DNA from: an uncultured Methanosarcinales archaeon
GTDB taxonomy: Archaea; Nanobdellota; Nanobdellia; Woesearchaeales; UBA583
NCBI GenBank assembly: GCA_964351975.1
Contig: CAYGPK010000002.1
Coordinates: forward strand, 88,772 to 152,771
Length of the DNA: 64,000 nucleotides
Direction: 5' to 3'
Below, in pieces: positions 5,789 to 53,327 of the stretch. Position numbers and translations under genes: made by a program. Position 1 is the first letter of the stretch. Each line of letters begins with the position of its first letter. The notes below the pieces were generated by a model. That model ran no database searches. It saw only the letters and a program-made list of their open reading frames with translations, and was not told the DNA's origin.

Positions 5789-6391
5789 TTATAATCCTGA
5801 ACCACCTGCGCCTGCACCACTACCGCCAGCTGAACCACTACCACTAGCTGAGCCTCCACCATCTCCACCGTCTCCACCGTCTCCACCAGATTCTTTACCA
5901 ATTTCATTTAAACCTAATGAGTTAAGTAAATCTGGATCTACTTTAAATTTAGTACTAAACCCAACATCATCTTTAATACCAATAAAATATCCATCATCAA
6001 ATTTATCTAATGCTTTAAGACCTTCCATTGTCATTAAATTATAATCTCTACCACCAACTGAAAATACAATAGATTCAGGAATACCACCAACAGATGATGC
6101 AGTTCTTGAAACAAGCCAAGCAAGTTCTTTCTCTAAACCTCTTAATTTTCCATCTCCATCTAAATCTACTATTTTCTTTAAATTAGCAGGAGTATGATAT
6201 AATTGAATATCCTTATTTGGAAGTGTAATACTTGCAGCCCATTCTGACTCAATTCCACCTAATGAAACAACCTTATCTTCTCTAGTAATTGTTATAGTTC
6301 CATATTCACTAGCTTTTGCAGAATTTGGTGCTAAAGCATATACCAAAGCACCACCTATACCTTTTAATAACTTTCTTCTTGTATTATCCAT
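5789..6391 (-). CDS. Secreted protein with a twin-arginine-type signal peptide and a G/D/S-rich C-terminal tail
   Basis: N-terminus MDNTRRKLLKGIGGALVYALAPNSAKA fits the (S/T)RRxFLK pattern plus h-region plus AxA. Tail is GGDGGDGGDGGGSASGSGSAGGSGAGAGGSGL. TTTATAAA lies 21 nt upstream of the ATG. Confidence 0.7.
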   Translation of the reverse strand: MDNTRRKLLKGIGGALVYALAPNSAKASEYGTITITREDKVVSLGGIESEWAASITLPNKDIQLYHTPANLKKIVDLDGDGKLRGLEKELAWLVSRTASSVGGIPESIVFSVGGRDYNLMTMEGLKALDKFDDGYFIGIKDDVGFSTKFKVDPDLLNSLGLNEIGKESGGDGGDGGDGGGSASGSGSAGGSGAGAGGSGL

Positions 6392-6412
6392 ATTTATACA
6401 AAGATACCCAGA

Positions 6413-6420
6413 TTTATAAA
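6413..6420 (-). promoter_or_regulatory. TATA box (TTTATAAA) for 5789..6391
   Basis: Palindromic octamer with 21 nt between the box and the ATG at 6391. Same spacing as at many other genes in the window. Confidence 0.55.
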
Positions 6421-6463
6421 TCTTATGTTTTGTTTTTCACTTGGAGTAGTGACAAAAAATAAA

Positions 6464-6471
6464 TTTATAAA
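6464..6471 (+). promoter_or_regulatory. TATA box (TTTATAAA) for 6494..6769
   Basis: 22 nt between the box and the ATG at 6494. Confidence 0.5.
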
Positions 6472-6493
6472 CAATAAATGATTACTAAAATAC

Positions 6494-6769
6494 ATGATAA
6501 CACCAATCTCACGCTCTGTATCTCCATATTTAGGCAAATCTCAACCTATGCAAGATGATCAACCTATAGTAAAGATAAAAGAAGCTAGCTACAAACCAAT
6601 TTCTCCTCAACCAACTCCTACTCCAGATATAATCATAAATGGAATACTACTAGCACAACAACTAAAACCAACAGAAACAGACTCAAGAATGGCAAGTAAT
6701 GCTTATCAAAGAATGCAACAATTAGCTACAGATACCCTAAGGACAAGAGGAATTGAAAGTAGAATTTAA
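6494..6769 (+). CDS. Hypothetical small protein (91 aa), Q/P/T-rich, no recognised family
   Basis: It is the only long ORF in a 385-nt gap between two minus-strand genes. It has a canonical TATA at the leaderless spacing. Composition is less K/N/I-rich than its neighbours. Confidence 0.5.
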   Translation: MITPISRSVSPYLGKSQPMQDDQPIVKIKEASYKPISPQPTPTPDIIINGILLAQQLKPTETDSRMASNAYQRMQQLATDTLRTRGIESRI

Positions 6770-43952: not shown

Positions 43953-45053
43953 CTAATCTAAAATAGTAACTATCTTATCTTTATTTTGTTTAATATATTT
44001 TTTCAAAATCTTTAAATCATCAATTTTAACTTTTCCAATAAATAAGTCTTTTACATCATTTTTTTCAGCAAATTTTTTAACTTTTAAATATCCACTAAAA
44101 TAAACATAATCCTTCGTAAAACCCCCTTTTTGTGAAGTGTCACATAAATTTCTCTTAACCCTAAAAGTAATTGCAAATGCAGCATCATCTCTAAATTCTA
44201 GTTTTTTTAAAATCATAAAAATTTCATAAAAGCTTTTCTTAGGAGCGTAATAAGATGCAATAACACGCCCTGCATAAATAAACATTTGCGCCTTAGAACT
44301 AACTCCTTTTAACTCTTCCATATAAGCTGCAAGACCTTCCTCAGTTTCCAAATAGTTCTTAGTTCCAGTCTCAAGAATTCTTCTACCTAAAAGATGACCA
44401 TTGTAATATCTCATATAATGTGTTCCAATTTCATGTACTTTTAATCTCTTCAAATCAAGACTTGTAAAAGTTTCATCTGGGTTAATTTGTATTAAATTTG
44501 CATAAGCTTCAATGTTTACTTTAGCATTAATTTGTGCATATCTAATAGTTATATTTTTTCCAGTTAATCTCTTAACTTCTTTTTTTAAGTCATCACCAAC
44601 AACCTTGGGAGTTATTCTTTTAAATCTAACTTTTTCTCTCTCAAATTCCTTACAAAATTTCATAGCTTTTTTAAACAAAAAATAATTAGGTAACCCCCAA
44701 TATTTAATAGCGTAAACAGATCCAAGAGGATGTCCCCAATGATTATGATAATTAACTTGAAGAATTTTATTTTTAATAACTTCAAGATATAATTTCTTAA
44801 AACCAAATTTATTACCTGATTTGAAAGTAAAATTGTTCAATTCTTCAAGAACTTCAATATTTTGTTTTTTTTTTACATATCTTAGTTGTGGGTTATATAT
44901 TTCATCATCTACTAATGCCTTAAAAAAAGTTTTTTTTTCAGATTGTAAATTAAGAGGTTTTGGAAAAATAAATGAAAATTTATTTAATATTTCAAAATAA
45001 TCTTTTTCTATCTCTTCAATCTCTCTCCAATACTTCTCCTCTTTATCTTTCAC
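43953..45053 (-). CDS. DUF1704/MATCAP-like putative metallocarboxypeptidase (QEGLA-motif family)
   Basis: VHEIGTHYMRY (HExxxH-type) and ETEEGLAAYME (EGLA motif) at the spacing I recall for this family. Confidence 0.45.
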   Translation of the reverse strand: MKDKEEKYWREIEEIEKDYFEILNKFSFIFPKPLNLQSEKKTFFKALVDDEIYNPQLRYVKKKQNIEVLEELNNFTFKSGNKFGFKKLYLEVIKNKILQVNYHNHWGHPLGSVYAIKYWGLPNYFLFKKAMKFCKEFEREKVRFKRITPKVVGDDLKKEVKRLTGKNITIRYAQINAKVNIEAYANLIQINPDETFTSLDLKRLKVHEIGTHYMRYYNGHLLGRRILETGTKNYLETEEGLAAYMEELKGVSSKAQMFIYAGRVIASYYAPKKSFYEIFMILKKLEFRDDAAFAITFRVKRNLCDTSQKGGFTKDYVYFSGYLKVKKFAEKNDVKDLFIGKVKIDDLKILKKYIKQNKDKIVTILD

Positions 45054-45558
45054 TTTCTAATAAACCTCTAAATGTGAAATTAAATTGTTTTGCTCTATCA
45101 AGAGAAGTTTTAGCTTTACTTCTTTTAATACTTGAAGAAGTCTCATATTGAAATTTAGATCTTTTTAGTCTTTCTAATTCATAATTTTCAACTAAAGATT
45201 GAGATAAAGATAAAGCTTCTTCTTTTTCCTCTTCATAATTCTCTAAGAAATCATAGATTTCTTGATTTTTAACTAATACAAATAAACTATCTGAAACTAC
45301 TTTATGGACTATTTTATGTGAAACCTTATATCCTAATTTTAACAAATAAGCATTAGCTAAATAAAATTGAGAATAATAAGAAATAACTATTACACATAAA
45401 TCTGAGTTATTTTCATTAAAAAGTTTATTTGCAACTTCCAAGCTTTCTTGAGAATTTTTCAAATAAGTATCATAAATTAGAGGATTAAAATCAACTTTCT
45501 TTATTAGCCCATCATTCAAATACTGTTTAAAATTTTGCTCTGCTTTTTTTCTATCCAT
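45043..45558 (-). CDS. HEPN-like helical protein (partner of the upstream nucleotidyltransferase)
   Basis: ESLEVANKLF......VISYYSQFYLANAYLLKLGYKVSHKIVH is HEPN-like. Overlaps the MNT gene by 8 nt. I see no Rx4-6H motif. Confidence 0.45.
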   Translation of the reverse strand: MDRKKAEQNFKQYLNDGLIKKVDFNPLIYDTYLKNSQESLEVANKLFNENNSDLCVIVISYYSQFYLANAYLLKLGYKVSHKIVHKVVSDSLFVLVKNQEIYDFLENYEEEKEEALSLSQSLVENYELERLKRSKFQYETSSSIKRSKAKTSLDRAKQFNFTFRGLLESER

Positions 45559-46126
45559 TTTTTATTAAATCATAATAACTTTCAATACCAAATAAGATAA
45601 TATTTTTTTTAGTTATTTCAGAAGAAATGTCTACATTTTTTACATTTAACATTGATTTATATTCTTCAAATGAAAAAGTCTGTAAATGAATATCAAGAGG
45701 TAAAATTGAAAATTTTGAAGTTATTTTTTTTACTATCTCATTATTATCACAAATTATACAAATATCTATATCTGAATTTTTATTTTGTTTATTATTAACA
45801 TAAGAACCAAAAAGTAAAACAATTAAAAAAGAATAATTTAAGCTATTAATATCATTGAATACCCTTTTAATATCCTTACTTCTTTCAATAACTTTTAATC
45901 TTCTTCGAGTTTCGACTTCTAAAACTTTTTTATTAAAATTAAAATTAAATGATATTTGATTTGAATTTCCTACTTTTTTTAAATTAATTAAATTTTCAGT
46001 TTCTAATCTTTTTATAATTTCATATGTTACCTTATAACTAATTTCTAAGTTTTTAGAGATTTCATTAATTGTATAAATTTTATCATTATTTTCAATTAAG
46101 TAAGTTAATATTTTCATCTCAGTCAT
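45551..46126 (-). CDS. wHTH-fused minimal nucleotidyltransferase (MNT)
   Basis: N-terminal ILTYLIENNDKIYTINEISKNLEISYKVTYEIIKRLETENLI (wHTH). LLFGSYVNNKQNKNSDIDICII (GSx10-12DxD NTase motif). Confidence 0.65.
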   Translation of the reverse strand: MTEMKILTYLIENNDKIYTINEISKNLEISYKVTYEIIKRLETENLINLKKVGNSNQISFNFNFNKKVLEVETRRRLKVIERSKDIKRVFNDINSLNYSFLIVLLFGSYVNNKQNKNSDIDICIICDNNEIVKKITSKFSILPLDIHLQTFSFEEYKSMLNVKNVDISSEITKKNIILFGIESYYDLIKNG

Positions 46127-46174: not shown

Positions 46175-46238
46175 TTTAAATCTTTTGTTTTATTTCTATT
46201 GGATTTAGTAAAAAGTTACTAATGTTAGTAAAAAACTA

Positions 46239-46940
46239 TTAATCATCTTCTTCTGCTTTAATTCCTAGAATATTTTGCATCTCTTTTCTAATTTCTGGAA
46301 CTTGTTCACAGTAATCAGGTGCTCCATTAAAGTAATCAAAACCTTCTTCAAAGATACTCATAATAATTTGCGCAAGTGCCATAGTATCTGTTGCAATAAG
46401 AAAAGCTGAAGCTGCAATTAATTGACCAGAAGTAGGAGTCCCAACAAAAGAACAAATCCAAGAACTAGCACCAGGGAAACATGAACCTGTAACTAATGTT
46501 CTTGCAACTTTAGTTCCAGCAGCCCATAATAAACCAATTGGATTTTCAAGTATTTGAGCAACTGCTGCTCTAAAAAATTCTAATATTGCCATTGGAGGTA
46601 GAGCAAATATCTCTCCAACAATGTATTTACACATATTATACTCATACTCTTTAGTACAAAAAGCAGGATCTATTCCAACTTTAACAGCCTCATAAGTACA
46701 AACAATTTGTCTACATTTGTATTGTCTTTGCTCTTCTACTTTCTCAATAATACCTGGCAAACATCCAGTAACTGCAGATAATATAAATGAATCTTTAACT
46801 TCGCCACTAAATCCTCCACACATACTCTGAACATCAGATCTATAAGGTGCTGCTGAAACTGTATTTATATTCATAGGAATTATAAAAATTAAACTTAAAA
46901 TTAAAAAAATACCAAAGAAACTATTAAATTTATTTTTCAT
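46239..46940 (-). CDS. Secreted Cys-rich protein with amphipathic/hydrophobic helices (233 aa)
   Basis: Signal FFGIFLILSLIFIIPMNINTVSAA. More than 10 Cys. G/A/V/P-rich and K/N-poor relative to neighbours. Its start lies 2 nt after the upstream stop. Confidence 0.7.
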   Translation of the reverse strand: MKNKFNSFFGIFLILSLIFIIPMNINTVSAAPYRSDVQSMCGGFSGEVKDSFILSAVTGCLPGIIEKVEEQRQYKCRQIVCTYEAVKVGIDPAFCTKEYEYNMCKYIVGEIFALPPMAILEFFRAAVAQILENPIGLLWAAGTKVARTLVTGSCFPGASSWICSFVGTPTSGQLIAASAFLIATDTMALAQIIMSIFEEGFDYFNGAPDYCEQVPEIRKEMQNILGIKAEEDD

Positions 46941-46942
46941 TT

Positions 46943-49762
46943 TTATGGACCAAACCTCTTCATTAATGGATCAGTATCTCCACAAACTGCACCAGCTAAT
47001 TCATTTTGAACATCTATCAAATCTCCCAATACAGGGATATCACCTAAAATATCACTATTTGAAGTTCCAACAGAGTCAGTAACCATTCCTAAAATATGAG
47101 CTCCATTACGACAAGTTACCCAATCACAGGCTGCTTTAATAGGCCCAGTTATATCAGATAAACTATCTAATAATCCATCTTTTGAAACTTCTAAAGCTCC
47201 TTGGGTATTAACTGAGGCTTTGTTTCCTAAATGTGTTTCCCAACATTGGGCAAAACCTACTGGTTGTGGCGTTGGACAAGGTATAAGTACACCTGAAGCC
47301 GGATTTATCTTACTAATTACAGGAGTTCCAATTTGACAACTTACACCTGGAACAGCAAGTACTGGATAAGTTACAGAGACTGAAGCTTCTATAGAAAGAG
47401 ATGTACATTCAACAAATGCTTCAGAATCAGTTAAAACTTTATAACTTTTATATATATCCGTTGCAGTAGTCAATACACCACCACCAGTTGTTACAACATT
47501 ACACAATTCACTTAGTAAATGATAAATACTAAATAAAGTATCAAACCAACCCTCAGCCCAAGCAACTTCATTTGTCATAGAAAGTATATTACTTGCTTGT
47601 CTTTCTAATAAATCTCCACCTGGAACATCAAAGAAACTAAAAACAACGTTAAATTCAACAAGCTCAGGAGCATAAACTTGTGTATCATCTCTCTTTAAAA
47701 CTGACATTGTACATTTCATATTAATATCATTTAAATCTCCTAAATTAGGATGATTTCGCAGTTCAAAAAATAAAGCAAAATCCAAATCATCTCCTTCTCC
47801 TACAACAACTCCATTTTCTGGATATAAACCAAAATCTAAAATAATTAGTGGATCAATATTACTCTCATCACAACTTTGTAATTGATAATTAATAACAGTC
47901 ATCTGATTATCTTTTGTTGTAAGCTTTCCTTCAAACCAAGCTGTTCCACCACGAGATTTCATAACATCATGATTAATTGGATTTAAAGTATTAATATTTG
48001 AAATTTTATAAGAACTTACAACTTCATTTGAAACTTTAAAAATCTCAACCCTATAATCTGAAATAACAGTATTTCCTGCTGAATCCGAAATAGTAAAATG
48101 AACCTCCCTATCTAAATAACCATTAACAACTTCAATTCCATTAAAATCACATTGAACTGTATTTTCACTATACAAACTACAAAGGCCAGCTTTTTCTTCA
48201 AACCCATCCCTAAAATCAATCTCTGAAAAATCTCCAAAAATAAAATATTCTCCATTATACAAATTAGAATCTGATACTCTAATTCTAAAATTTACTTTCT
48301 CCATTGACTTTAAAATTCCATCTTTAATAGATTCAGTCTCAATAAATTCAATGCTATCAATAGTTGGTTCAGTATTATCAACTACAAAATTTAATTCTTT
48401 TACATTATAATTACCATACAAGTCTGAAACACCAACCCTCAAAGTAAAACTTTTATCATCTGAATTAGCAAATGCTGAGACACCACCTGATAATTCCCAA
48501 ATACATTCACCTGAATCTCCAACAAACGTACAATCCTTAATTGGGAAAGGTAAGCTTCCAAACTCCTCAGCAACTACAACTCCTCCTTCTGAAACACTCT
48601 CATCTGTAAATTTCAAAACAACTCTGGCATTTGTATCAGTTGAGCTTAAAATATTTCTAACCCCTAAACTATTCTCCAAATAAAACTCACTGATAACTGG
48701 CCCAGTTTTATCAACAAAAATTTCTTCATTAAAAGTTTGTAATCCTGTATTTAAAACAACATCATTCGAACTAAATTTAATTGGAACTGTAGTTGTATCA
48801 CCTAAAGTGATTTGTACATCATTAAAATTACAAGTAAAAGTATCTAGACTTATCTTTGTACAAGAACCAGTCATAACACCAACAGAAGGGTTAATTGGAG
48901 TTAAATCTGCAGTTACAACAGGAACAAAAGAATCCACAATTTCAAAAGATTCATCTTTAACATCAACACTTAAAGACACACGCCTAGTCCCATCATATTC
49001 GTAAACTTTTCTTAAATTTAAATATGAAGGTCCATTACCATCAACAGTTAAATCTACAGATTTAACATTTCTAAAACCAAGTTTATCTTCTGCTGTAAAA
49101 GTGTATGTTCTACTTGAACTAGGTGTATCAACAAACTCTCCAGTATAAGAACCATCAGAATCAAAACTTATAATTTGTGAAATTCCTCCAGTAATAGAGA
49201 GATAATCTAAACCAGAACCAGAATCAGAAACTGTATAATCTACACTAAACTCATCACCAGATTTAATAATAGAATCAGCTGAAGTAACAAAACTATCAAA
49301 AGCTGGTGCAGAATTATCTGGTAAGAATTGTAATGATCCACTTCCACTTCCACCAATTAAATTTGAAACACTGTAAGTCGATAAAAATGGACTTGTAACT
49401 ACAATCTCAACATCAAAAGTAAAAAGAACCTTAGTTAAATAATTACTTCCAGATGCAGAAGTTATTACTGAATTTGCATTAATTTGACTTCCTGTTGAAA
49501 ATAATTTGAACTTAAAAGAATCGCTATCATAACAACTGTTTTCATCATTTAAAATACTATATTCTAAAGTTAAAGGATTTGCATCTAAATCTGCTCTAAT
49601 ATAAACTTGATCAGAATCATCAAAGCTTCCTAAATTTTTTGAACCAGAACTAATAGCAATAGAATCAGGAATAATTTTACAACTTGCAAAAACAGAATAA
49701 GAAGAAAAAGTTAAAACTATACCTAAAGTTAATACAAAGAACAGTTTCTTTAAGTTAATCAT
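46943..49762 (-). CDS. Secreted 939-aa protein: Ig-like repeats followed by a Cys-rich, G/V/T-rich C-terminal domain
   Basis: Signal LFFVLTLGIVLTFSSYSVFA. SDSGSGLDYLSI and EPTIDSIEF Ig-like hallmarks. C-terminal ~250 aa contain VTTGGGVLTTATD and many Cys. TATA-like box 22 nt upstream. Confidence 0.75.
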   Translation of the reverse strand: MINLKKLFFVLTLGIVLTFSSYSVFASCKIIPDSIAISSGSKNLGSFDDSDQVYIRADLDANPLTLEYSILNDENSCYDSDSFKFKLFSTGSQINANSVITSASGSNYLTKVLFTFDVEIVVTSPFLSTYSVSNLIGGSGSGSLQFLPDNSAPAFDSFVTSADSIIKSGDEFSVDYTVSDSGSGLDYLSITGGISQIISFDSDGSYTGEFVDTPSSSRTYTFTAEDKLGFRNVKSVDLTVDGNGPSYLNLRKVYEYDGTRRVSLSVDVKDESFEIVDSFVPVVTADLTPINPSVGVMTGSCTKISLDTFTCNFNDVQITLGDTTTVPIKFSSNDVVLNTGLQTFNEEIFVDKTGPVISEFYLENSLGVRNILSSTDTNARVVLKFTDESVSEGGVVVAEEFGSLPFPIKDCTFVGDSGECIWELSGGVSAFANSDDKSFTLRVGVSDLYGNYNVKELNFVVDNTEPTIDSIEFIETESIKDGILKSMEKVNFRIRVSDSNLYNGEYFIFGDFSEIDFRDGFEEKAGLCSLYSENTVQCDFNGIEVVNGYLDREVHFTISDSAGNTVISDYRVEIFKVSNEVVSSYKISNINTLNPINHDVMKSRGGTAWFEGKLTTKDNQMTVINYQLQSCDESNIDPLIILDFGLYPENGVVVGEGDDLDFALFFELRNHPNLGDLNDINMKCTMSVLKRDDTQVYAPELVEFNVVFSFFDVPGGDLLERQASNILSMTNEVAWAEGWFDTLFSIYHLLSELCNVVTTGGGVLTTATDIYKSYKVLTDSEAFVECTSLSIEASVSVTYPVLAVPGVSCQIGTPVISKINPASGVLIPCPTPQPVGFAQCWETHLGNKASVNTQGALEVSKDGLLDSLSDITGPIKAACDWVTCRNGAHILGMVTDSVGTSNSDILGDIPVLGDLIDVQNELAGAVCGDTDPLMKRFGP

Positions 49763-49844
49763 AAAGAAATCTCAAAAATAAGAGTTTTAAACTTTATTAT
49801 TTACTCTATAGGACAAACTAGAATAAAATCTAAATTTCATCCAA

Positions 49845-52800
49845 TTAATTTAATGGTTTTTCAGCAAACGCTATGTAAATAAAAGACCCACTATTTGCAT
49901 TAACTTCTGCTCCAGCATTTCTAAGCTTAAATCCATTTGATAAGAAGTCAAAATAACCTGCAGTATTTTCAGCCTCAGTTGTACTAGCTCTTAAATATCC
50001 ATCAAAAGGATTATATCCAACTCTTTTTGAATCTTGTATTCTCCAATCTCCAGTAGAATCTGTTCTTTTAATCATAACAAAAGCAGGTTTAAATCCAGTA
50101 TAAATAACAGGTCCGTCTGTGTTTCCATTACCTGTATAGCTTCCAATCTTACTAAATCCTTCTTTCTCTGCAAATAAATAAGCAATCATCCTATTTGTAT
50201 TTCCATTAACACCAACATTAGTTCCTATTGTAAAAACTTCAGAAGTAGGTTGGGTTCTGTTAAAGGTAGGAGTATTTAGAACATTTGTATCAAGAGCATT
50301 TGAAGTAAAAGTAAAAAAATTATTTGCAGGAGCACCATTAACATTAAGATTCGAAACAGATTGATGATAAATAGTCCAACTATTTGTTGTATCTAAATTC
50401 TTGAAAATCATTAAAGCAGGAACTACTCCTAAACTATGGTTTATTGAACGAGCTGTTGCAGTTCCAGTATAAGATACAATATCAAAAATACTTTCATTCT
50501 CTTTCCAATTCCAACTTACAAAATCTTCAGTATTATCATTATAACCACTAGCACCTGTTCCTAATTCAAAACCATCAGAATTAAAATTAGTTAAACCATT
50601 TGAATCTGTCCCTTCAACAGCAGTTGAATCAGAACTCAACTCTTTTGTAACACCACGCAAACTATCTATTAATTTATGCTCATCTGTTGTATCACGATTC
50701 TTAATCCAAACTAAATCTGGACTAAATGATAAACCAGTAATGTTTCTTACAGCAGAATTTCCAGTATAAAGAATTGTATCAAAGAATTCACTAGCATTAA
50801 CTTTTCCAGTTATGTTGTTAATATTATTAACGCTTAATGCTTTGAATCCACTAGGTGGAGTATAAACAAAACTTCCTCCTGCAGAAGAATTGTAAGTTGT
50901 TGAACTTCCACTTAAACTAGATAATTGTCCAAAATTAATTCTCTGAGAATTTGTAGCTATTCCTGTTCCATCTCCAACCATTGAAAAAACTTCTCCGGTT
51001 ATTCCATTTAAAAAAGCTCCAATATTATTTGATGGATCTCCTATAACATCACTACTGTTATCTAACCAAACTCCATCAATACCAAACCAAATTTTACCCT
51101 CATCCATATCTAAAGCAACCATTATAGTATTTGTACTATCAAATGCCCAAGATGAATTATCAGGAGTTGAAGTTGTAAGTGTTCCGCCAATAGGATTGTC
51201 ATGATAACGTCCATTAAAATTTAGAACCCAATTTCCAACTCCATCATTTTGATTACCACTACTTTGACTTAAATCTGTATGTGAAGAATAAACTCCAACT
51301 TCTCCTCCATTACCAGTTTGATCAACTTCCCAATACCATTTACCTGAACTTACTCCTAGCGTAGCTACTTCTCCTGCAAGATTAGATGAGGTTATATCTA
51401 AATTTCCATTTGAAAATGTCCCTGAACCTGTTGTTATTGGATTTAAAATCGCAAAATTATTTGTAGGCACATCAGTTACTTGATCATCACTTGGCGCATC
51501 TAAAATTGTAGCAGAAGCAGTCGGAGGAGTAAAATCTCTTGTCCAAAGAGCTTTTCCTTTAGTAATTCTGATTTCATCAAAATATCCTGATGAATAATCA
51601 GGAGAAGAACCATAATCTCTAGCTCCTATTCTTATTTCTCTATCATTATTATAAATAGTAGAAGATGATGATGTTGAACTAACCCTAGTTCCATTAATAT
51701 ACAAACTAAAATTATTACCATATCTTGTAACTGCTATATGATGCCAACTATTTTCTGAAATATTTAAAAGACTACCTGAATATAAATTTGCAATCTCAGA
51801 GTTTCCATCATTTGATGCTTGAAATAATATTTCTCCTTGAGAACCAGTACTATGAATTGCCCACCCCTTATTTGATGTCGGACCTGAACCCCATTTGCTA
51901 AATAAAGTTTGATAAGCACTCAAATCATTTGGATTAAACCAAAAATCAATGGTAAAGTCTCCTGTTCCAAACTCTAGTTCTGAAGTATCTGAAATACTTA
52001 AATAATCTCCACTCCCATCAAAATAAATTGAAGAGTTACTAAACTTACTATTATTTGTTTCGTGGCTAACATCTCCATTAGCAGTTATACTGTGCCCTAT
52101 TCCACTTGAATCAACAAAAATAGTTGAACCATCACTATTGTCTGAATGAATTAATAATCCTTGACCTTCCTCTATATTATTCACTGTAAAATTATTAGCA
52201 TTTCCACTAAAATCCCTTCCTAAATTAGTAGATTGATTAAATGGTAAATAAAAACCATTTGTCCCATAACTTCCTTTAGAAGTGTTTGTAACATTAAATT
52301 CTTTAGGAATCCAATTTCCATAAGAATCATTTTCTCCAAAATACTCTGGACCAAGTGCTTGTCCATCAACAAAATTAACATCTGACATATAACCATCAAA
52401 ATAATTTGAAGCAGCTGCATTACTTCCTATTGCATGAACATATTGACCATTTATAACATCATTACCAGAAGACCAAGTATAACCATTAGCATTTAAACTT
52501 TGAAGTTCTCCATTAACATAAATTTTAATAGCATCACTTAATGAGGCTTGAGTTGAATCATGATACAAAACAATATGATTCCAATTATTTATATCTCTAA
52601 ATAAAGCATCAGTAGAAGCATATGCAACATACCCTGAACCTCTTTGAGTTGAAAAATGTAGTTGATTAGTATTTCTGAAATATAATCCTGCAAAATTATT
52701 CCCATCTTGATAACCATTAAAAATACCTTGCCAAGTATCTAATGTTCCTCTTTTAATCCAACCACTCCAAGTCCAAGTTGTTCTATTACCTTCTACACCC

Positions 52801-53327
52801 GGAGTCCTATTCAAATAAGCACTATCTCCATCATTAAATAGCAAACTATTACTGGCACCATAACTAGAACTACTACTAACTGATTCTTCTTCACTAGAAT
52901 TAGAGCTCAAAGAAGTACTTGCACTAACATTACGATTGTAAAAATAAGTTGAATAAGGTCCCTTATTTGTATAAACAACAGCTTCAATCTTACTACTTGT
53001 TAAATTAGTTGTACAATTGCTATTCAAACTAATTTGAGTCAAACTATCGCCATTCGCAGTCAGACTCCCCAAGTTACAGGAATTACCACCAATTTTAACA
53101 TCAGTAATTGTCAAATTCTCAGTAAAACCATTACGAAAATATAAAGTATCACCTAACAATTGGTCAATTTTTGTTTGAGAAACACTACTAGAACTTTTAC
53201 TCTCAACATCAGAAAATAAAGTTGTAGAATAAGAATTAAACCAAGTTTGAAAACCAATAATTGCAACAACAGCAACAACAATTAACAAAGAACTCGCAAT
53301 AACAGGACCTATTCCCTTTTTATTCAT
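49845..53327 (-). CDS. Pilin_N-type class III signal peptide protein (1160 aa) with two LamG-like domains, one SPRY-like domain and a repeated C-terminal motif
   Basis: N-terminus MNKKG/IGPVIASSLLIVVAVVAIIGFQTWFN. LamG-like WTWSGWIKRG...IVLYHD and FTIDFWFNPND...WHHIAVTRYGNNFSLYINGT. SPRY-like SGKWYWEV...IMVALDMDEGKIWFGIDG. TTTATAAA 22 nt upstream. Confidence 0.8.
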   Translation of the reverse strand: MNKKGIGPVIASSLLIVVAVVAIIGFQTWFNSYSTTLFSDVESKSSSSVSQTKIDQLLGDTLYFRNGFTENLTITDVKIGGNSCNLGSLTANGDSLTQISLNSNCTTNLTSSKIEAVVYTNKGPYSTYFYNRNVSASTSLSSNSSEEESVSSSSSYGASNSLLFNDGDSAYLNRTPGVEGNRTTWTWSGWIKRGTLDTWQGIFNGYQDGNNFAGLYFRNTNQLHFSTQRGSGYVAYASTDALFRDINNWNHIVLYHDSTQASLSDAIKIYVNGELQSLNANGYTWSSGNDVINGQYVHAIGSNAAASNYFDGYMSDVNFVDGQALGPEYFGENDSYGNWIPKEFNVTNTSKGSYGTNGFYLPFNQSTNLGRDFSGNANNFTVNNIEEGQGLLIHSDNSDGSTIFVDSSGIGHSITANGDVSHETNNSKFSNSSIYFDGSGDYLSISDTSELEFGTGDFTIDFWFNPNDLSAYQTLFSKWGSGPTSNKGWAIHSTGSQGEILFQASNDGNSEIANLYSGSLLNISENSWHHIAVTRYGNNFSLYINGTRVSSTSSSSTIYNNDREIRIGARDYGSSPDYSSGYFDEIRITKGKALWTRDFTPPTASATILDAPSDDQVTDVPTNNFAILNPITTGSGTFSNGNLDITSSNLAGEVATLGVSSGKWYWEVDQTGNGGEVGVYSSHTDLSQSSGNQNDGVGNWVLNFNGRYHDNPIGGTLTTSTPDNSSWAFDSTNTIMVALDMDEGKIWFGIDGVWLDNSSDVIGDPSNNIGAFLNGITGEVFSMVGDGTGIATNSQRINFGQLSSLSGSSTTYNSSAGGSFVYTPPSGFKALSVNNINNITGKVNASEFFDTILYTGNSAVRNITGLSFSPDLVWIKNRDTTDEHKLIDSLRGVTKELSSDSTAVEGTDSNGLTNFNSDGFELGTGASGYNDNTEDFVSWNWKENESIFDIVSYTGTATARSINHSLGVVPALMIFKNLDTTNSWTIYHQSVSNLNVNGAPANNFFTFTSNALDTNVLNTPTFNRTQPTSEVFTIGTNVGVNGNTNRMIAYLFAEKEGFSKIGSYTGNGNTDGPVIYTGFKPAFVMIKRTDSTGDWRIQDSKRVGYNPFDGYLRASTTEAENTAGYFDFLSNGFKLRNAGAEVNANSGSFIYIAFAEKPLN

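Follow-up and report, generated by a model that had tools for sequence, protein, structure and literature searches.

Woesearchaeales are among the most widespread uncultivated archaea of the DPANN group; to our knowledge, no member of the lineage has been cultured and nothing is known of its envelope proteins. The subject of this work is a pair of adjacent genes, encoding secreted proteins of 939 and 233 amino acids (aa), in a 64,000-nucleotide (nt) stretch of DNA, hereafter the window, from an uncultured archaeon of this order (deposited as a Methanosarcinales archaeon; assembly GCA_964351975.1, contig CAYGPK010000002.1, positions 88,772 to 152,771). An earlier reading of the letters alone, made without database searches (the sequence-only reading), had speculated that the two proteins might carry effector modules acting on a host membrane. 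The pair is instead a stable fission variant of an undescribed secreted protein, here called F, which occurs across the order and has been cut within a linker, and its C-terminal Cys-rich helical domain belongs to no described family. In the clade of the window this domain has gained a signal peptide of its own.

The gene pair

The open reading frame (ORF) of the big subunit (939 aa) occupies 46943..49762 (-) and that of the small subunit (233 aa) 46239..46940 (-), coordinates that agree with the earlier ones; all features of the pair given below are likewise on the reverse strand. Only 2 nt separate the stop codon of the first gene from the ATG of the second, and the two ORFs are in different frames. 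Each protein begins with a hydrophobic Sec-type signal peptide. That of the big subunit (residues 1-26, ..SVFA/SC; 49685..49762) exceeds 1.5 on the Kyte-Doolittle scale, is kept in homologs and is closely followed by a cysteine, C28, which is invariant among them. That of the small subunit (residues 1-30, ..NTVSA/A; 46851..46940) is newly acquired and carries the family motif S-x-x-F-x-x-P. Small-subunit signal peptides share this motif in the longer form S-x-x-F-x-x-P-x-(N/Q)-I...(Y/F)-(A/G), a conservation above that usual for Sec signals, and the N-terminal signals of fused F proteins likewise have a proline 7-9 residues ahead of the cleavage site.

An intergenic gap of 82 nt lies between the big-subunit gene and the 1160-aa gene upstream. 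A TATA-like box (aaagtttaaaa; 49785..49795), about 23-33 nt upstream of the big-subunit ATG, may be the pair's own promoter, and two T-tracts (T6, T5; 46210..46235) just past the small-subunit stop resemble archaeal terminators, both being features read from the sequence. Together with the spacing of the genes they suggest that the pair is co-transcribed.

The description of the pair as secreted, Cys-rich proteins with a sharp compositional shift was borne out by the ORFs, the signal peptides and the amino acid counts. In residues 691-939 of the big subunit Ala, Cys and Pro amount to 6.8, 3.2 and 5.6 % and Lys plus Asn to 6.8 %, compared with 1.7, 1.7, 2.2 and 13.9 % in the preceding 230 residues (461-690); the mature small subunit has 10.3 % Ala, 4.4 % Cys and 6.4 % Lys plus Asn. 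Overall, Ala, Gly, Pro and Cys increase and Lys and Asn decrease in the last ~225 residues of the big subunit and throughout the small one. The DNA is less AT-rich as well, as had been noticed: the GC content is 0.34-0.375 at 46200-46800 and 47000-47600, versus 0.17-0.30 in the flanks. GC at third codon positions is flat throughout at 0.11-0.13, and only the first and second positions carry the increase; the shift is therefore an effect of amino acid composition, and foreign DNA was rejected as its source.

Fission of an order-wide secreted protein

In most Woesearchaeales genomes F is one secreted protein, typically of ~1,050 aa (range ~1,000-1,350 aa). From the N-terminus on, it has a signal peptide, about six immunoglobulin (Ig)-like domains, a helical tail that bears a C-x4-C motif, a variable linker and, at the C-terminus, a Cys-rich helical domain. 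The big and small subunits of the window, taken one after the other, have the same parts in the same order; the single polypeptide that otherwise characterizes the family is here two. A narrow profile of the small-subunit family finds a match in 143 of 201 Woesearchaeales genomes and none in about one third, and a broader profile matches 201 of the 301 genomes in a sample of the phylum. Outside the genus of the window the matches lie almost always at the C-terminus of a single frame of 1,000-1,600 aa. Most genomes, which measure 0.6-2 Mb, have one match and some have two. E-values go down to 1e-112 for the small subunit's own match and are 1e-15 to 1e-25 for fused genes. When 1.84 billion representatives were searched exhaustively with HMMER, 866 cluster representatives matched at E <= 1e-3. 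In all but about 75 of them the match is the C-terminus of a secreted protein of 950-1,350 aa; those 75 or so stand alone, have 200-270 aa and each carry a signal peptide. The two modules are accordingly adjacent or fused in hundreds of relatives, as the sequence-only reading had anticipated. Its view of them as two independent effectors did not hold, as they are halves of one ancestral protein.

The correspondence with the fused form extends over both chains. By hhalign, residues 145-767 of the big subunit are collinear with residues 126-769 of a fused homolog of 1,056 aa from Candidatus Woesearchaeota (P0106, PIN74950.1) with a probability of 98.3 %. The big-subunit tail joined to the small subunit aligns end to end with fused C-termini, through the tail helix, the C-x4-C pair C879/C884, the variable linker and the core KDS..LS..CLPGII..RQI.C, and both subunits match the same fused ORFs by BLASTP. 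The stop codon of the big subunit (46943..46945), that is, the fission point, falls in this alignment within the variable linker of the fused forms. No hydrophobic segment comparable to the small-subunit signal peptide occurs at that position in 14 aligned fused proteins. A word-index search gave six homologs of the small subunit and eight of the big one, all unnamed or "hypothetical" proteins from metagenome-assembled genomes (MAGs) of Nanoarchaeota or Woesearchaeota. The fused "hypothetical proteins" of ~1,050 aa from Woesearchaeota MAGs (P0084-P0164) are true homologs with the same order of parts and differ in being single polypeptides, whereas the clade of the window has two genes, the second with its own signal peptide; no name, Pfam family or published study was found for them.

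Phylogeny of the C-terminal domain places all 74 true stand-alone small subunits, each with a signal peptide, in one pure clade that includes the window, a pattern that fits a single old fission. The four seeming exceptions proved to be truncated gene calls, and 14 changes of state in a first tree, in which "split" rows had been loosely defined, were traced to gene-call fragments. The spacing between big- and small-subunit genes ranges from -17 to +4 nt in 10 of 10 evaluable relatives, with varying frames; since the frames differ among relatives, the stop codon between the genes is no sequencing error. Two loci were not counted as evaluable, one with a masked gene junction (runs of N; L021) and one with a frameshifted small-subunit gene (L029). 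The latter, at 6001-6643 of OZ242164.1, a Woesearchaeota chromosome assembly, is possibly a pseudogene or the result of a long-read error.

Domain organization of the two chains

The Ig-like repeats attributed to the big subunit were recovered as a confident array of about six beta-sandwich domains (residues 30-712; 47627..49675) when the protein was modeled with AlphaFold2 on an alignment of 34 sequences, at a predicted local distance difference test (pLDDT) score of ~90 (range ~85-95); the assignment is also supported by the hhalign collinearity. The array has VD..(A/G)P motifs at the domain junctions and Cys pairs 301/311, 411/420, 528/538 and 631/684. Its matches to known proteins are weak: in Pfam only Big_12 was detected (13.9 bits, under the cut-off of 27), and a profile search of PDB sequences gave weak Ig-like matches along with weak Rib/Big profile matches. 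Foldseek searches with the model retrieved generic matches only, to cadherins, contactins and several S-layer proteins. The isoelectric point (pI) is acidic, 4.1-4.5.

Residues 713-939 of the big subunit (46946..47626) make up its helical, Cys-bearing tail, which is divided by regional conservation and is collinear with the "FC.F..C" motif of fused proteins. Conserved in it are a long helix (717-779, WFD..Y.IY..L..CN) and the motif CDWVTCRN (879-886); the loop between them (781-870) is rich in indels, and the end is variable. C754, C879 and C884 are invariant in the 34 sequences, fused forms included; C927 is invariant in the same alignment, a result valid only within the split family, as the fused rows may be misaligned there. 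No homology of the tail to the small subunit was detected by BLASTP, and an hhalign match between them is an artefact, caused by C-terminal domains of fused rows being aligned under the end of the big subunit.

The all-helical, Cys-rich C-terminal domain, delimited by profile matches and AlphaFold2, constitutes residues 45-225 of the small subunit (46266..46808). Its core motif is KDS..LS..T.CLPGII....(K/E).RQ..C..(I/V).C, and C60, C76, C81, C95, C104 and C211 are invariant in 57 sequences, so that the cysteines said to look conserved are so in the alignments of both chains. From these 57 sequences AlphaFold2 predicts a helical bundle in which a short N-terminal helix precedes six others (mean pLDDT 74.4, predicted template modeling score 0.49). 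The idea of two constrained, folded modules is upheld in part: the small subunit folds as a helical bundle at a pLDDT of 74, but the big-subunit tail (residues 714-939), when folded alone, gives low-confidence helices with a pLDDT under 50.

That no family could be recognized by eye was confirmed by every search made. Pfam, NCBIfam and PHROGs scans of the small subunit gave no match, nor did NCBIfam and PHROGs for the big one; a sequence-profile search of the PDB with the C-terminal domain was negative; Foldseek with the small-subunit model found nothing significant in the PDB (best E = 6.9, top matches 6.9-9.6) or in a viral fold library (best E = 0.76). In the literature nothing specific was found on the F family, its accessions, Woesearchaeal S-layers or gene fissions in DPANN archaea. 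Some F proteins and small subunits, a minority (P0091, P0092, P0098, P0152, P0023, P0027), have G-(L/I/F)-F after an acidic run at their C-terminus; this ending could be a short docking or sorting motif and is absent from the protein of the window.

Predicted disulfide bonds and glycosylation sites

The 1.1-Mb genome of the window (G000) encodes three DsbA-like proteins (PF13462; C2:64291-64809, C2:168064-168588, C8:26308-26868), and no homolog of VKOR was found in it. The three genes suggest that extracytoplasmic disulfide formation is active. The signal peptides, the invariant cysteines and the DsbA-like genes fit extracellular, disulfide-bonded chains.

Archaeal S-layer proteins are usually N-glycosylated. 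The genome has a gene for AglB/STT3 (C5:41621-43018), and other giant ORFs are rich in N-x-S/T sequons (for example C2:82714-87555, with 121 versus 62 expected). The 913 mature residues of the big subunit contain none, versus ~10 expected (Poisson P ~3e-5). Sequons are also depleted in the small-subunit family (20 observed versus 89 expected), and fused homologs have from 0 to 25.

Genomic partner D

Around fused F a recurrent gene cluster was found in metagenome loci (L030-L062) and in L068-L072, consisting of U, F, D and sometimes M250. U is a large protein with a class III or pilin-like N-terminus (KRGQI(T/S)IF), and pilin-like proteins with a class III signal recur next to F. D has 740-1,200 aa, an N-terminal hydrophobic segment and a conserved C-terminal domain of ~250 aa (FFSDE..W...VD.FF..YLG.EYW.S.IC). 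M250 is a polytopic membrane protein of ~250 aa with 5-7 transmembrane segments. None of U, D and M250 belongs to a Pfam family.

Of 200 further Woesearchaeales genomes 99 encode D, usually on the same strand as F and 1-5 kb downstream of it. In four lineages (G057, G106, G044, G060) F and D form a single ORF of 1,245-1,607 aa, which contains the Ig array and the C-terminal domains of both. F and D are linked through this natural fusion plus their adjacency.

Proposed role at the cell surface

The pair most likely forms a two-chain, disulfide-stabilized protein of the cell surface. Both chains would be exported separately by the Sec pathway, their signal peptides removed and their cysteines oxidized; the small subunit would then re-bind the helical tail of the big one, rebuilding a helical, disulfide-stapled base module from which the variable Ig-like array would point outward. 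The resulting complex would serve this small-genome archaeon as a structural or adhesive surface protein. The conserved base may act in oligomerization or in attachment to the envelope, and in relatives it would work with the partner module D, encoded beside F or fused to it. To this reading as a whole, an ancient fission product whose chains re-associate into a secreted structural or adhesive surface protein, we assign a probability of about 0.6.

Several observations weigh against it. We infer the re-association of the chains from the fused homologs only, and the Foldseek matches of the Ig array are generic in nature. No transmembrane-grade segment was found after the signal peptide of either subunit, hence no membrane anchor in either chain. 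The absence of sequons from the big subunit counts on the same side, and D was not found in the three genomes of the genus of the window, one of which is a single contig.

A more specific proposal, which we regard as unlikely, is that the two chains are the lattice-forming S-layer protein of Woesearchaeales, with the Cys-rich base as lattice or anchor element and the split form as a two-component S-layer in the manner of SlaA/SlaB. F is secreted by a Sec signal, acidic, multi-domain and rich in beta structure, it is near-universal in the order, mostly with one match per genome, and its base is conserved while the outer domains vary. Solved S-layer proteins (SbsB, EA1 and the Nitrosopumilus SLP) are among the fold matches, relatives have the adjacent partner gene D with its N-terminal hydrophobic segment, and unspecified "S-layer protein genes" are among the top expressed in Woesearchaeota metatranscriptomes (PMC11606122). 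However, no known archaeal anchoring device was found, neither a C-terminal transmembrane helix nor PGF-CTERM, and the C-terminus is acidic; the big subunit has no N-glycosylation sequon despite the presence of AglB; D is missing from the genus of the window; about a third of the genomes of the order have no match to F; and matches to cadherins and other adhesin folds are equally good.

SlaA and SlaB of Sulfolobales, a large secreted outer protein and a smaller one from the neighboring gene that act together at the cell surface, resemble the pair in design only; no sequence or fold similarity exists. Whereas SlaB ends in a transmembrane anchor and has a coiled-coil stalk, the small subunit lacks a transmembrane helix after its signal peptide, and the two chains of the window derive from one ancestral chain. 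With multi-Ig surface proteins (the Big_3_3, Big_12 and Rib adhesins; SbsB, EA1, Nitrosopumilus SLP) the big subunit has in common a tandem series of beta-sandwich domains that follows a Sec signal. Profile matches to Big_12, Big_3_3 and Rib/R28 are weak, below or near threshold; among fused homologs one passes the Big_3_3 cut-off of 27 bits, with 31.5 bits, and the others fall short of it. None of the known anchors (LPXTG, SLH, PGF-CTERM, transmembrane helix) is related to the C-terminal module.

The sequence-only reading had offered, as speculation, that the Cys-rich helical modules are pore-forming or membrane-inserting effectors acting on a host membrane, with the Ig array for delivery or adhesion. 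This role is unsupported and we consider it improbable, as no fold, sequence or hydropathy evidence speaks for it. In this all-helical domain the helices are moderately hydrophobic, the most hydrophobic one after the signal peptide being residues 174-197 of the small subunit (Kyte-Doolittle 1.7), and the per-member maximum over 19 residues has a median of 1.6, with about half of the members at or above that value. The family mean, however, peaks at ~1.4-1.5 (maximum ~1.46), under transmembrane level, and the counterpart of helix 174-197 is amphipathic and charged in fused homologs. The strong conservation of the domain in a lineage thought to dwell on hosts, as well as the depletion of sequons in its family, which would suit a close-contact surface, are in keeping with an effector, but no significant fold or sequence likeness to a pore-former, a saposin-like protein or a fusogen was found: the best match to an alpha-pore-former, AhlB, has E = 7.3 and a probability of 0.04, and the viral fold library gave nothing. 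With alpha-helical pore-forming toxins and saposin-like proteins the domain shares a small, helical, partly hydrophobic and secreted character, and with the latter also disulfide stapling; it differs in its size of ~170 aa, in the pattern of its cysteines and in lacking a conserved transmembrane-grade hydrophobic hairpin. Its approximately eight conserved cysteines are typical of a rigid stapled fold and not of one that refolds in membranes, and in relatives it is fused to further modules that are soluble.

The 2-nt spacing, the different frames and the frameshifted small subunit of one relative might suggest that a normally single F gene is broken here, whether as a pseudogene or as an artefact of assembly or frameshifting. 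This is effectively refuted. The split recurs in over 10 independent assemblies, whose junctions show overlaps of 1, 4 or ~17 nt or gaps of 1-4 nt; every small subunit has a conserved signal peptide, unseen at the corresponding position of the fused proteins that were inspected; the 74 split forms make up a single clade that is old and diverse; and both halves are under purifying selection, with their invariant cysteines and motifs.

Significance

Two anonymous ORFs become one defined, order-wide family that spans 866 cluster representatives and has a clear domain plan and a genomic partner, D, and the readings of the locus as a pore-forming effector or a three-gene apparatus are removed. The fission is a natural experiment: it indicates that the conserved base is able to exist as a separate secreted chain, which is a convenient target for expression, structure determination and localization with antibodies or tags. 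Should F be the main envelope or S-layer-type protein of Woesearchaeales, standing on an undescribed disulfide-stapled helical base that docks to D, which we hold to be doubtful, the series of 939/233 split, single F and F-D super-fusion would be a domain map of a new archaeal surface assembly, and the sequon-free variant in the genome of the window would point to a surface kept unglycosylated. If F has no role in the envelope, the case is one of ordinary gene fission in a hypothetical surface protein.

Synteny and neighboring genes

In four syntenic relatives (L001-L004) the gene order is CCA-adding enzyme, ZPR1, a gene of ~900 aa, a gene of ~220 aa, a MATCAP-like peptidase and an SNF2 helicase. 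Compared with them the window has two insertions, a pilin-headed LamG/DUF7483 gene of 1160 aa (49845..53327 (-)) and a pair encoding a winged helix-turn-helix nucleotidyltransferase and a HEPN protein (45043..46126 (-)). The sequence-only reading had grouped the 1160-aa gene with the pair as a trio whose conservation was to be checked; a conserved trio was rejected, the gene being absent from L001-L004, where the big subunit directly follows ZPR1. The 1160-aa protein also had no BLASTP match among the genes beside fused F. An upstream protein of 920 aa was considered as a partner and discarded, being unrelated to the neighbors of fused genes.

Neither D nor M250 was detected in the genome of the window. 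Two homologs of U are present there (C3:126160-128349 (-), E = 1e-33; C3:31347-33374 (+), E = 5e-13), both with N-termini resembling class III signal peptides and both distant from the F pair.

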